64,000 nucleotides of DNA from a virus. Made by a program: the position numbers and the translations under genes. Below the pieces are notes generated by a model. It had not been told where the DNA came from, did not search any database, and was given only the letters and a program-made list of their open reading frames with translations. The DNA lies in the IMG/VR virus record IMGVR_UViG_3300025195_000002. One strand, written 5' to 3'. How positions within the stretch are numbered: the stretch's first letter is position 1; each line of letters opens with the position of its first letter. Shown here one piece after another: positions 16,662-53,315 of this stretch.

Positions 16662-16669
16662 CTGACACC

Positions 16670-16677
16670 TATATTAC
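16670..16677 (+). promoter_or_regulatory. Early promoter motif TATATTAC
   Basis: Exact match to the phiKZ early consensus, about 40 nt upstream of 16717. Confidence 0.65.
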
Positions 16678-16716
16678 CTAACAGGTTCCCACCCATAACT
16701 AACCTAAGGTGATATA

Positions 16717-25746: not shown

Positions 25747-25747
25747 G

Positions 25748-25801
25748 CGCATAAAAGCCTAACCACCTAGCCGTGAGGCCGGGTGGTTAGCTTATGCCGT
25801 T
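25748..25801. repeat. 54-bp bidirectional terminator, exact inverted copy of 53262-53315
   Basis: Base-by-base reverse complement of 53262-53315; stem CTAACCACC../..GGTGGTTAG flanked by CGCATA and TATGCCG. Confidence 0.92.
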
Positions 25802-32338: not shown

Positions 32339-33655
32339 ATGTCTAACCGTTTAAAATCTCTACTGGCCACTACAGCGCCGTCTGTATCGGTTGAAGAACA
32401 CAGCAACAAGACTAAGGTTGACGTTGCTTTATCTCAAGTTGAATTAACTGGTGTTGCGTTGGAAAACGCTGAAGCTAAACTTGACCTTGAGTCTATCAGT
32501 GTTGAACAATCGAATGCTGATATCACTGAACTGGAAGAAATTGCAGTAGGTCTGGAGTCTATCCAAGCCGCTGCTCAAGCAACGATTGCTGATGGTGGCC
32601 TTAAACGCGCAGCTGCGGCGATGATGCATGTTGCTATTGAAGGTTATGCTAACCGTTTAGGTCTGGAAGAAGCGATGGTACCTGCTATTGAATCATTTGG
32701 TTCTGAAGGCGAAGCCATGACAGCTACCCAAGTGTCGGTTGAAGGCATTAAAGATGTTATCAATCGCGTATGGGAAGCCGTGAAAGCAGCGGTAATGAAA
32801 GCATACGAAGCAGTAGCTAACTGGTTTAAACAGTTCTTCATCAATGCTGAGAAAATCAAAACACGTGCTGAAAAGGTTAAAGAGTCTGTTAAAGACAAGA
32901 CCGGTGATGCCGAAGAAGCCAAAGTTTCTGTTGGCGGTGCGGTAGCAAAACTCCACAAAGGTGGTAAGTTGGCATCTGTTTCTGCCGCAGCCAGTGACGT
33001 TAAAGACCTTCTGGGTGACGTACTGGGCGCACAGAGCATTCTGTCTAAGAAAGCAGGTGACCTAGCTGACATCGTTGGTAAAGTTTCTGCAGCGACTCCT
33101 GAAGATGCTGCTGCGCAAGTGGTTGCAGCTAAAGAGTTGGTTGGTGGTGCAAGCGACGCTTTTAAAGGTGCCTTGAAACTGACTGAAAAATCTGAAGGTG
33201 GTGAAACTGCGCTGTACTCTGAAGAACTGCCGGGTGGTAAACAAGTTAAAGTAGTTGCCGAAGACGGTAAATACTCTGCTTCTTTAGTCGATGCCGGTGA
33301 AGTGAAGCTTGCTGATGCCGATAAAGAAGTTGACACTCTGTCTGTTGCCGACATCGAAAGTCTTTGTGACGTGGTGGTTGATTGTACAGACGTCCTGGGC
33401 GGCGCTAAGAAAACTGTCTTTGAAGATGGTAAGAAAGTTAAAGACGACCTGATCAAAGCGGGTGCCGATTCTGCTGGTAAGCTCAAAGACGACACTGATA
33501 AAGTGGTTGCTGACAGCACTCAGTCTTTAGTACGCATGCTGCCTGTATTTACTCGCATGGTTGACCAGCCATCTATGGCACTTTTAGCCCACTCTGCTAA
33601 AGCGCTAGGCGCGGTACTGGATATTGCTGCTGCATCTGCAAAGCAATACAAGTAA
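32339..33655 (+). CDS. Major internal head protein (phiKZ gp93 / SPN3US gp53 family)
   Basis: Repeated SVE/ALE/GLE sites, PAIESFG, VSVEGIKDVINRVWEAVKAAV, LPGGK. Confidence 0.82.
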   Translation: MSNRLKSLLATTAPSVSVEEHSNKTKVDVALSQVELTGVALENAEAKLDLESISVEQSNADITELEEIAVGLESIQAAAQATIADGGLKRAAAAMMHVAIEGYANRLGLEEAMVPAIESFGSEGEAMTATQVSVEGIKDVINRVWEAVKAAVMKAYEAVANWFKQFFINAEKIKTRAEKVKESVKDKTGDAEEAKVSVGGAVAKLHKGGKLASVSAAASDVKDLLGDVLGAQSILSKKAGDLADIVGKVSAATPEDAAAQVVAAKELVGGASDAFKGALKLTEKSEGGETALYSEELPGGKQVKVVAEDGKYSASLVDAGEVKLADADKEVDTLSVADIESLCDVVVDCTDVLGGAKKTVFEDGKKVKDDLIKAGADSAGKLKDDTDKVVADSTQSLVRMLPVFTRMVDQPSMALLAHSAKALGAVLDIAAASAKQYK

Positions 33656-33742: not shown

Positions 33743-35077
33743 ATGCGTAAATTCTTTCAAGAACCAGCTGTAGCTAAACCAGCTGTAGTAGCATTAAGCG
33801 CCGATGAGCAGATGGAAGCGATGGTTGCCTCTGAAGAGAGCTTTCAGGAATTCATCCAACTTGAAGCCGAAAACGCTCGAGCTATGGAGATTGCTGCCGG
33901 TTTAGAAAATTTAGCGATGGTTGCTGATCATGTTAAATCTGCGTCTAACACCGACTTGGCTTTCTTTGATGCCGGTATTGACCTTGCCTTAGTAGGCACT
34001 GGTATCTCATCTGAATCTATCGTTCCAGGCCTGGAAGATATGGAAGGTAGCGTGATCTCAACTGAATCTGTAAAAGAAACAGTTGACAAAATCTGGACAG
34101 CGATTAAGAAAGTCATCGAAAACATGTGGAAACAAATCCAGATCTTCTGGGGCAATTTGGTTAAAGCTGCACCTGGTCTGAAACTGCGTGCTGAAGCATT
34201 GTCAGAAAAGGTAGCCGAGTTAGGTTCTGCATCAACTGATGCGAAAACGTTCTCTGCCGGTAATGCGTTAAAGACATTATCTGTTGACGGTAATTTGCCG
34301 AAGAAAGGGTCTGACGTTATCGAAGGTCTGTCTTTGGTTGAATCCATTGCCAGCCACCTTTATGGTAAGTACAAAACTGACATGATCAAGATTGGTAAAG
34401 ACGTTGACTCTGCACTGTCTGCTTTTGATCTGACCTCTATCGATACTGCCAAAAGTTCACTGGATGCAGTAACGTCTGCTTACGCCGGCCTTCATGATCT
34501 TAATGAGTTCAAAGGCGTTAAGATGGTTAAAGTAGGTCGTGATGTACGCTTCAACCGTTCTGAGACTGTTGAAGCTGCCCACCTGCCAACTGACAAATCT
34601 ATCTTCAGTGTAAGCTTCCCGGCTGATGAGTCTGAAGACGTACTGGGTCGTGCTGAGCGTATCCGTAAGTCAACGTTGATGTTGATGGAAACTACTGCCG
34701 GTGACGCTAAAGCGAAAGATAAAGAAGCTGAGATGGAAGTCTTTGCTACTTCTGACGTACTTACTATCGCCGAGCGTTGTGTGGCACTGTCCAGTATGGT
34801 TGCTGATCATGACGCTAAAGCAGTTAAGTCTGTTGCTGACGGTATCATCAAAGCGTCTGATGCGTTGAACAAGAAGTTTAAAGATGCCAGCAAAGAAGAA
34901 GGCGGTGTTGCCTCTGCTTCTAGCTATGTTGATTCTGCAATGAAATTCAACGTGGCATTCACTTCGGTTTCTACTAAGTTCGAAGCCCAGCTCGCGCGTC
35001 TTGCAATGACCACTGTACGTGCAGCGCTGTCTGTTGCGCAGTCTAACTTATCCCAGTATAAGAAAGACAAAGCGTAA
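33743..35077 (+). CDS. Internal head protein paralog (gp93-97 family)
   Basis: GLE sites and ISTESVKETVDKIWTAIKKVIENMW; tandem with the previous paralog. Confidence 0.82.
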   Translation: MRKFFQEPAVAKPAVVALSADEQMEAMVASEESFQEFIQLEAENARAMEIAAGLENLAMVADHVKSASNTDLAFFDAGIDLALVGTGISSESIVPGLEDMEGSVISTESVKETVDKIWTAIKKVIENMWKQIQIFWGNLVKAAPGLKLRAEALSEKVAELGSASTDAKTFSAGNALKTLSVDGNLPKKGSDVIEGLSLVESIASHLYGKYKTDMIKIGKDVDSALSAFDLTSIDTAKSSLDAVTSAYAGLHDLNEFKGVKMVKVGRDVRFNRSETVEAAHLPTDKSIFSVSFPADESEDVLGRAERIRKSTLMLMETTAGDAKAKDKEAEMEVFATSDVLTIAERCVALSSMVADHDAKAVKSVADGIIKASDALNKKFKDASKEEGGVASASSYVDSAMKFNVAFTSVSTKFEAQLARLAMTTVRAALSVAQSNLSQYKKDKA

Positions 35078-35116
35078 GTGATGAGCGTCTAAAAAATCCC
35101 AACATCTGGGTCGTAG

Positions 35117-35147
35117 GCTAGGAGGAATTCCTCCTAGCTTTATGCCG
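35117..35147 (+). terminator. Hairpin + TATGCCG element
   Basis: GCTAGGAGG-aatt-CCTCCTAGC-TTTATGCCG. Confidence 0.8.
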
Positions 35148-35156
35148 TATATCTAT

Positions 35157-35443
35157 GATGGGATGTGCTGTCATTCGTTCACGCAAACAAGTTGATTATA
35201 TCGTTCTTCCCTGGCAACTTGATATTGTGAACATGGGTGTAGGTTTTGGGTTGGGCTATTCACCTACACCCCTCTTTTCTGACACCCCATCTAACTGTCT
35301 GATGGTAGAGGTAGGTTTTTCCTTTATTTTCCCTATCTCAATCAACGCTCTGGACAAGCGTCCAATGTCAGACAGTGTTTGGCCACTAGTGGTGGCTGCT
35401 AAGAGGGATGGGGGCTGTGATGGTCCCCATCCCTGCTTATGCC
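35157..35443 (+). ncRNA. Candidate structured ncRNA of about 285 nt
   Basis: Eight complementary helix pairs seen by eye; begins at the G of a TATG late-promoter motif and ends in a hairpin+TATGCCG element. Confidence 0.55.
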
Positions 35444-35520
35444 GTCAGGGATGGTATGAATTTAAACGTCAGACGTATTACGTATGACTATATAACGATT
35501 TATTTAATGGAATTAACACC

Positions 35521-37056
35521 ATGCCACGTATTGCGATTGATTGCGGCGATAGCTACGATAGCGTTATCCGCCCTACTGTTTTGACGGTAGTAGAACAAGT
35601 AAAGAAGGTGACGGGACTAGGTCGCGTCAAAACGCTATTTACGGGTGATCCAAATAACACACCTCAAGTAGGTAGTCTGATAGACAATCCAGAAAAAGAT
35701 GTTACCTTTACTAACCAGGAATACCTACAGTTAGAAGTACGTACGGAGTATATGGACTCTGATCTTTTAACGAATAATGTTTTTAATCGAAACAACATTC
35801 CTCTTTTTAGAGACATTGACTTAGGTGTGTATATGGCACCGGTAGTCGGACATACCCGTGCTACAATCAGTGTCCGCTATAAAGCGCAAAGTCGTAACGA
35901 TGCAGATAGATGGCTATCTGAAATAAAGCGTCGAACTGCCCAAGGATTTAAAGAACTGACTCATGATGTTGAGTATCATTATCTTATCCCACGCGAGCTA
36001 TTGGTGATCTTAGACCAGATCCATAAAAAACGAGAAGCGGTAGCAGGGTATGGTGAGGATCTCAATCGCTACCTCACCGATCATTTCCATGAGAAAGTTA
36101 CCTGGTTCACGAATCAAAGTGGGCAGCGTAAGGCTTTGGGTGTCAGAGAGAAACAGACGGGGATATTGGGATACTTTAATTTCGATTCCTTGCCTGAAAT
36201 TGAAAAAGGTGAAACAGGTAACTGGATAAGTCAGTTTGATTACATTGTTGAATTTGACAGACCACACTCAGTAGTGATGCAATATCCACTGGTTGTCCAT
36301 AACCAGCTACTTGACACTAAGTATTTTGATGACACTATAGACTTCAACCAAACCCTTGAACTTTATCTAAGTAGTGTTTTTAATCAAGGGATGGATGTCA
36401 CTGTTAATCGCCATCGCCTACCTGCGCTGTCTACTTTATTAGGTTACGCTGTACCTGCTTTTGATGAATGGCTACCGCAAGAGGTCCCTATGTCTACAAC
36501 GACAATGGCTAGAATATTACTGGCTGTGGATGTCGATAACCCTCGCTATTTATGTAACATTGGAGAGCTAGGAGACTTTGCATTAGTTGATGAGGTAATT
36601 ACGTATCTGAAACGCCGTCATGACTTTGCGACAACACTCAAAGCGTCTCCAATATTCTTTAGTCTGTATCAAGATAATACCAGGATGTCTGATACGGTGA
36701 TGCAGATGGATGATCAAGGTAATTTATTTACAACGGTTGATCTATCATTACGTCGAGTATATCACCTTAGAGTAGGTATCTTTAACGATCTAAGTCTGTT
36801 AAATGAGAAAGTATTAGAAGATCTCAGAATGGATGGTGAATTTGCCAAGATACTATTGATCGCACTTGAACCATCATTGCGTGATGATCCATTACTTGAG
36901 TTATTACCCGATGGCCGTTTACCTAAACGTAACTTTTGGGATGCCATTGCCCGTATTAAAGGAACGAACCGACACTACAAGAATAAAATTGAAGTCAATC
37001 GGTTTACTGTTGCCAGTCTATTAATAACCTCGCGTAGACGCTCGCGATACGTGTAA
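35521..37056 (+). CDS. Conserved virion structural protein (phiKZ gp98 position)
   Basis: 511 aa; YPLVVHNQLL; synteny after the head paralogs. Confidence 0.7.
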   Translation: MPRIAIDCGDSYDSVIRPTVLTVVEQVKKVTGLGRVKTLFTGDPNNTPQVGSLIDNPEKDVTFTNQEYLQLEVRTEYMDSDLLTNNVFNRNNIPLFRDIDLGVYMAPVVGHTRATISVRYKAQSRNDADRWLSEIKRRTAQGFKELTHDVEYHYLIPRELLVILDQIHKKREAVAGYGEDLNRYLTDHFHEKVTWFTNQSGQRKALGVREKQTGILGYFNFDSLPEIEKGETGNWISQFDYIVEFDRPHSVVMQYPLVVHNQLLDTKYFDDTIDFNQTLELYLSSVFNQGMDVTVNRHRLPALSTLLGYAVPAFDEWLPQEVPMSTTTMARILLAVDVDNPRYLCNIGELGDFALVDEVITYLKRRHDFATTLKASPIFFSLYQDNTRMSDTVMQMDDQGNLFTTVDLSLRRVYHLRVGIFNDLSLLNEKVLEDLRMDGEFAKILLIALEPSLRDDPLLELLPDGRLPKRNFWDAIARIKGTNRHYKNKIEVNRFTVASLLITSRRRSRYV

Positions 37057-40441: not shown

Positions 40442-40451
40442 CCTAAACACC

Positions 40452-40459
40452 TACATTAC
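40452..40459 (+). promoter_or_regulatory. Early promoter motif TACATTAC
   Basis: One mismatch to TATATTAC, directly upstream of the 40475 micro-gene. Confidence 0.6.
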
Positions 40460-40474
40460 TAAAAGGAGACTATC

Positions 40475-53263: not shown

Positions 53264-53315
53264 CGGCATAAGCTAACCACCCGGCCTCACGGCTAGGTGG
53301 TTAGGCTTTTATGCG
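53262..53315. repeat. 54-bp bidirectional terminator, exact inverted copy of 25748-25801
   Basis: AACGGCATAAGCTAACCACCCGGCCTCACGGCTAGGTGGTTAGGCTTTTATGCG. Confidence 0.92.

Follow-up and report, generated by a model that had tools for sequence, protein, structure and literature searches.

A two-domain structured RNA, probably a late non-coding RNA gene, among the virion genes of uncultured phiKZ-like phages

The DNA analysed here (the window) is a stretch of 64,000 nucleotides from the IMG/VR virus record IMGVR_UViG_3300025195_000002. It originates from an uncultured phiKZ-like giant phage of the nucleus-forming type, and it encodes split beta subunits of a multisubunit RNA polymerase, a polymerase subunit of the phiKZ gp123 type and a major head protein of the phiKZ type. 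Its proteins share less than 33% identity with those of known phages, and no deposited phage is close to it at the DNA level, as judged from searches of the phage collection for both near and distant DNA matches. Within the structural block, two paralogues of an internal head protein precede a gap at 35078-35520, and a homologue of phiKZ gp98 follows it (Table 1). As the initial annotation had pointed out, this gap is the largest among the structural genes. The gene order at 33743-37056 matches phiKZ (94-103 kb), running from gp94-96 to gp98-101; the inner-body gene gp97 is absent, and the RNA described here stands in its place. At the equivalent site of phiKZ, gp97 fills the slot and an 83-nt gap precedes gp98, and we found neither sequence nor model similarity to the RNA there.

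Two hairpins with a common tail are located in the gap. T1, belonging to the upstream internal-head-protein gene, consists of a 10-bp GC-rich hairpin (35116-35139) and TTATGCCGT (35140-35148), and the upstream 48 nt fold at -22 kcal/mol. T2, also labelled P10, folds at -26 kcal/mol, and one pair of its stem is changed on both sides in the relative L006, from G-C to U-A. In a genome 99% identical to the window, the copy of the 110-aa ORF (protein P0017) differs by a single residue, Asp to Val, at the codon 35407-09; A35408 to T, within the T2 stem, would be the simplest change behind it, and the pairing position encodes an unaltered residue. In phiKZ, the terminator motif is a stem-loop followed by YTTATKYYGT, found at 61 terminators (Putzeys et al. 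2024, PMC10914365). The hairpins of T1 and T2 are GC-rich and both tails fit this motif exactly, a likeness that describes the boundaries of the RNA only and is predicted here from sequence. The initial annotation had noticed a terminal hairpin with TATGCCG. The hairpin is indeed strong and of the phiKZ terminator type, but it had been overlooked that TATGCCG tails belong to a motif spread over the genome: 12 intergenic sites at gene ends in the window, T1 and T2 among them, combine a hairpin with this motif. Since these tails represent a genome-wide terminator motif, the RNA unit sits between two terminators. The RNA probably ends at T2, at about 35436-40. Elsewhere in the window, near-identical hairpin terminators of ~50 nt occur at two convergent gene junctions (25747-25800 and 53264-53308) with a TTATGC tail on both strands, and they are predicted to be bidirectional.

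All relatives, even the distant L001, have a TATG at a distance of 5 nt from T1. The nvRNAP of phiKZ uses TATG as its late promoter, with the G as +1; the motif is necessary and not sufficient (PMC4666361). The first helix had been proposed to start exactly at the G of such a phiKZ-late-type TATG, which agrees with the fixed spacing of the motif in five lineages; the likeness to the promoter is a sequence match only. Both terminator motifs and the TATGs are oriented along the + strand. In the simplest reading, the RNA would be a unit of its own that begins at G35157 and extends to about 35440. Alternatively, its 5′ end could be G35144, at a TATG inside T1, and the RNA could also arise via read-through or processing. 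At the sequence level, the locus resembles the ncRNA candidates of phiKZ-like phages in its layout, with a candidate start followed by a predicted terminator and no conserved ORF. We also notice another motif, CCTA(C/T)ATTAC, which presumably resembles the core of the phiKZ-type early promoter. It occurs in intergenic positions upstream of genes at 16662-16690, 40442-40470, and about 18830, 47175, 57905 and 1060, with none in the RNA unit.

Table 1. Coordinates of the genes, sequence motifs and helices at the locus.
Feature	Coordinates	Strand	Remarks
Internal-head-protein paralogue	32339-33655		Upstream flank of the gap
Internal-head-protein paralogue	33743-35077		Immediate upstream flank of the gap
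T1, phiKZ-type terminator of the upstream internal-head-protein gene	35116-35148	+	Hairpin and motif, all relatives
TATG, candidate late promoter core	35154-35157	+	+1 at G35157; kept in five lineages
110-aa ORF	35155-35487	+	Judged not a gene
Domain 1, three-way junction (P1-P5)	35157-35293	+	R2 match, covariation
P1	35157-62/35286-91	+	Outermost helix, weak support
P2	35169-73/35280-84	+	Closes the domain 1 junction that holds P3-P4 and P5
P3	35177-82/35227-32	+	Forms a long hairpin with P4
P4	35188-94/35215-21	+	20-nt loop carrying UCUUCC
P5	35235-43/35263-71	+	19-nt loop (35244-62), invariant save one position
Domain 2, three-way junction (P6-P8)	35294-35376	+	R1 match, covariation, independent folds
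P6	35294-302/35368-76	+	Closes the domain 2 junction that holds P7 and P8
P7	35308-15/35332-39	+	U-rich loop
P8	35345-49/35357-61	+	Invariant CUGGACA loop
P9 hairpin	35381-86/35392-97 (35381-35397)	+	Covariation
T2/P10 terminator	35404-35445	+	Hairpin 35404-13/35425-34 and TTATGCCGT (35437-45)
TATG within conserved GATGGTATGAAT, candidate late promoter of the gp98-like gene	35455-35458	+	Window, L003/L004, L006
Second conserved TATG before the gp98-like gene	35482-85	+	Sequence
phiKZ gp98 homologue (gp98-like virion gene)	35521-37056		Downstream flank, followed by a virion structural protein

The complementary segments named in the initial annotation are all present in the gap, at the coordinates given there. 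The stretch 35154-35453 has a minimum free energy (MFE) of -117.8 kcal/mol, compared with -89.4 +/- 5.1 for 200 dinucleotide shuffles (z -5.61), none of which is as good; the trimmed unit 35157-35440 on the + strand also stands out from shuffles (z -5.09). The MFE structure includes the helices at 35157/35286, 35169/35280, 35177/35227, 35188/35215, 35235/35263, 35294/35368 and 35308/35332 as well as the terminal hairpin. The minus strand at this locus reaches z -5.8, and folding of this single sequence does not separate the strands.

We gathered relatives from IMG/VR by a profile of the gp98-like protein, which gave six contigs at 75% protein identity and L001 at 52%. The gap occurs in three different versions among the six contigs (L003=L007, L004=L005 and L006=L008). 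A gap of the same size is found at the same place in all retrieved relatives, and the two bounding TTATGCCGT-type motifs are spaced by 302-309 nt in all five lineages. The protein search also shows relatives at 98%, 75% and 50% identity (P0002, P0004 and P0006). No additional homologues came from a metagenome scan, which returned only the known contig, or from two IMG/VR pattern scans, which returned the same seven contigs, and a scan based on P0006 had no match. When folded independently by MFE, the sequences of the window, L003/L004 and L006 converge on one architecture, with two three-way junctions, a short hairpin and the terminator hairpin, and seven helices are kept in the relatives with compensatory changes. 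The claim of a multi-domain structured RNA with two multi-way junctions is borne out in this form, with both junctions common to the window and these relatives and backed by covariation.

Covariance models were built from the relatives only, with the window left out; R2 describes domain 1, and R1 describes domain 2 together with P9. R2 matches the window at 35157-35293 (93.7 bits, E 3e-25) and R1 at 35295-35399 (26.1 bits, E 4e-5), and neither has a second match within the window. MAFFT alignments misplace domain 2, so model-guided alignments were used instead, which are fitted to the structure and contain three or four distinct rows. The models contain 47 pairs, in which 96-97% of cells show standard pairing; 21 of these pairs are changed on both sides. 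Domain 1 accounts for 23 pairs, with 97.1% of cells paired and both-side changes at 7 pairs, compared with 0-1 in slid controls. Domain 2 and P9 account for 24 pairs, with 95.8% of cells standard and 14 pairs changed on both sides (P6, 5; P7, 2; P8, 4), compared with 1-3 in slid controls. In these controls the partner is moved by 1-3 columns, which gives 0-3 both-side changes overall. P9 alone has six pairs, with 100% of cells paired and three changed on both sides. On all measures but one, 0/500 shuffles score as high, the exception being the pair types in domain 1 (4/500); for domain 2 with P9, 0/500 shuffles do as well. Because only three distinct lineages align, the covariation evidence is an aggregate without per-pair statistics. 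The nucleotide identity of the RNA between lineages is 65-79%, much as in the coding DNA on either side (70-84%). The comparison of lineages shows that the RNA fold is maintained by selection.

P1 comprises 5 bp in one lineage and 4/6 in another; it has no covariation and is unsupported beyond the window. P2 and the outer part of P6 are retained as helices with shifts of register between lineages, and both were excluded from the covariance models. Two local proposals of the initial annotation fared less well in the relatives. The pairing TGGAC/GTCCA (35351-64) forms in the window but only there, and the relatives use the neighbouring covarying helix P8. Likewise, the pairing of 35278-84 with 35366-72, suggested as a switch or pseudoknot, is present in the window, but the corresponding segments of the relatives lack complementarity. 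The invariant parts across lineages are the 19-nt loop of P5, save one position, the CUGGACA loop of P8 and the UCUUCC tract in the loop of P4. P5 (35235-35271) and P7 (35308-35339) look alike in all three lineages, each with (G/A)UAGG at the stem end, UUUU opening the loop and CCUA returning. These look-alike hairpins may be twin binding sites.

A cmscan search of 34000-37000 against Rfam 15, which the initial annotation had recommended, found no family at E up to 10; it yielded only three microRNA matches of 19-23 bits, compared with thresholds of 74-96. No tRNA or tmRNA was found in the searched sequence. The RNA occurs in one copy per genome in the two relatives that were searched whole, and we found no paralogue of it. 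R1 and R2 have no match in L001, Klebsiella phage Eowyn, FLC9 or the head region of phiKZ. No cellular homologue was found, and matches of a loop 17-mer in cellular genomes are at chance, with <=18 bits for R2. As judged from these searches, the RNA is confined to a small group of related uncultured phiKZ-like phages of roughly 190 kb.

The slot of L001 has kept its length and the motifs that bound it. Between these two terminator motifs, at L001:3646-3954, we observed a 309-nt structured RNA (z -4.6) with no match to R1 or R2. It shares only small motifs with the window RNA, for example a hairpin with GUAGG and a hairpin loop containing UUUUCCUGG. It would be either a different RNA or one that has diverged beyond recognition. 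Klebsiella phage Eowyn has a 357-nt gene-free stretch in its head block (L137:1847-2203) between two phiKZ-type terminators; this stretch is A-rich, less structured (z -2.9) and without a model match.

It is highly likely that the locus produces a functional structured RNA of some kind. We considered three other readings, namely that the 110-aa ORF is a protein gene, that the locus acts at the DNA level, or that it is what is left of a decayed gene, with accidental structure. An uninterrupted frame of 110 codons is shared by the window and a genome of 99% identity, whose copy is the only database homologue of the ORF. However, translation from this start would run into a stop after 13 codons in L003, L004 and L006, and the relatives have no ORF in common. 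The frame also crosses T2, it has no PHROG or Pfam match, and no AGGA-type ribosome site lies upstream of it. Between L003 and L004, a 1-nt indel in a loop alters the ORFs without harm. The view of the initial annotation that the gap is not a protein gene agrees with this lack of conservation and of a family match, and the protein-gene reading is already largely refuted. A DNA element or a decaying gene does not fit the nested compensatory changes, which include G-U pairs, nor the energy bias towards the + strand, which exceeds the - strand in stability by 6-17 kcal/mol in each of the five lineages. The supported helices contain 8 G-U cells, which would be A-C mismatches on the opposite strand and thus support the + strand. 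We regard all three of these readings as hardly credible. Another possibility is a structured RNA without its own promoter that is cut from read-through of the upstream internal-head-protein operon, either 3′UTR-derived or processed. Processed 3′UTR-derived ncRNAs are documented in phages, as ncRNA1 and ncRNA2 of PAK_P3. Nevertheless, T1, a strong terminator of the genome-wide class, stands directly upstream, and the TATG keeps its fixed spacing in all lineages down to L001, which makes such an origin unlikely.

The main rival, which we consider possible but doubtful, is a cis-acting 5′ leader of the gp98-like virion operon. Transcription from 35157 would stop at T2 unless a factor on the folded leader permits read-through, and the short RNA would be a by-product of premature termination, like the 5′UTR-derived ncRNA candidates of phiKZ and 201phi2-1. 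The layout of promoter, terminator and gene has been reported for 17 candidates of phiKZ and 8 of 201phi2-1 (PMC10914365; PMC11512511), and in the window the segment 35285-91 has two possible partners, the 5′ end (forming P1) and the 5′ strand of T2, which gives the classic 1:2 / 2:3 / 3:4 arrangement. The 2:3 duplex reaches -15.7 kcal/mol in the window, where 2% of shuffles are as good. In each of the three lineages, the P5 loop, which reads GGGUUGGG in the window, also shows near-complementarity to the T2 3′ strand. In L003 and L006, however, the antiterminator pairing is at the level of shuffled sequences (fractions 0.37 and 0.50), and P1 is weak as well. The conserved TATGs past T2 could provide the downstream gene with a promoter of its own, two three-way junctions with invariant loops exceed the needs of a simple attenuator, and Rfam contains no matching riboswitch or leader family. 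An assignment to attenuators or riboswitch-type leaders on the basis of a conserved antiterminator pairing was tried and rejected, as only the window has a 2:3 duplex that differs from shuffled sequence.

We notice in addition that words like GGGATGG occur three times, at 35158-64, 35405-11 and 35448-54. The 3′ strand of T2 can build the terminator with the upstream copy; its alternative partner is the copy that directly precedes the TATG at 35455. The alternative hairpin of the T2 3′ strand places TTATGCCGT in its loop and has -17 kcal/mol in the window, being weaker in the relatives.

We favour as the probable explanation a structured non-coding RNA gene of ~280 nt on the + strand, which would be late, separately terminated and trans-acting within a ribonucleoprotein. 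The stems drift between lineages, whereas the P5 loop, CUGGACA, UCUUCC and the twin UAGG-UUUU hairpins stay fixed. This pattern points to recognition by a partner, and a trans-acting ribonucleoprotein role is therefore favoured. According to this explanation, the phage RNA polymerase would start at G35157 of the conserved TATG, directly past T1, and transcribe the two three-way-junction domains and the small hairpin. Transcription would halt at T2, about 35436-40, and the TATG motifs past T2, as candidate promoters, would serve the gp98-like virion gene. The invariant loops may form the recognition surfaces for the partner, and the RNA would most likely act in trans within a ribonucleoprotein of the late phase.

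A search of the window for sequences that could base-pair with the invariant loops gave matches at chance level only, the best being one perfect match of 10 nt, with ~1 expected. We also considered an anti-Shine-Dalgarno role through C/U-rich loops. The phage ribosome-site motif is AAGGA/AGGAA, and the loops of each homologue contain 4-8 complements of it at positions that are not fixed; a rough estimate of the chance expectation is about 3-4 (12 five-letter words, 300 nt). The initial annotation had suggested that the RNA may be packaged, scaffold assembly or act as a protein sponge. As a more specific role, the RNA might be a component of late development, either as a scaffold of the head or inner body or a packaged RNA, or as a decoy for a host RNA-binding defence or RNase. 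The scaffold or packaged version is suggested because the RNA occupies the slot of the phiKZ inner-body protein gp97; the decoy version would capture its target via the invariant loops and the twin UAGG-UUUU hairpins. Taken as a whole, such a role appears quite improbable.

The RNA can be compared with several known systems. Processive antitermination RNAs (HK022 put and EAR) and attenuators are structured RNAs located just past a promoter and before a terminator of a long operon. The window RNA has no resemblance in sequence or structure to HK022 put or EAR, and alternative pairing is not conserved here; the analogy is mechanistic only. Like ROOL, GOLLD and HEARO of Rfam, which are large phage-associated RNAs with no assigned function, it is a multi-junction phage RNA supported by covariation. 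In contrast to them, it is much smaller and has no match to an Rfam model, and there is no evidence of common descent. The closest counterparts are the ncRNA/sRNA candidates of phiKZ and 201phi2-1, which were mapped by ONT-cappable-seq (Putzeys et al. 2024, PMC10914365; PMC11512511). They share with the window RNA the type of RNA polymerase, the conservation of the unit in relatives, the lack of a translatable conserved ORF, and the form of a short unit between a start site and a hairpin-plus-TTAT terminator, upstream of a virion gene. However, these candidates are defined by transcripts and the window RNA by covariation only; they are mostly <250 nt with simple hairpins, whereas the window RNA has ~280 nt and two three-way junctions. 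The window RNA is a new family akin to these candidates, which it exceeds in size and intricacy, and all of its known members come from uncultured phages.

The ncRNAs of nucleus-forming jumbo phages have been seen in transcriptomes only recently, and to our knowledge none has a known function. With unusually clear comparative support, a two-domain fold, invariant loops that can serve as handles for pull-down, and predicted ends, the window RNA is a concrete candidate for testing. Our findings also suggest that the phiKZ terminator motif and the logic of TATG starts extend to a distant clade of uncultured phages.
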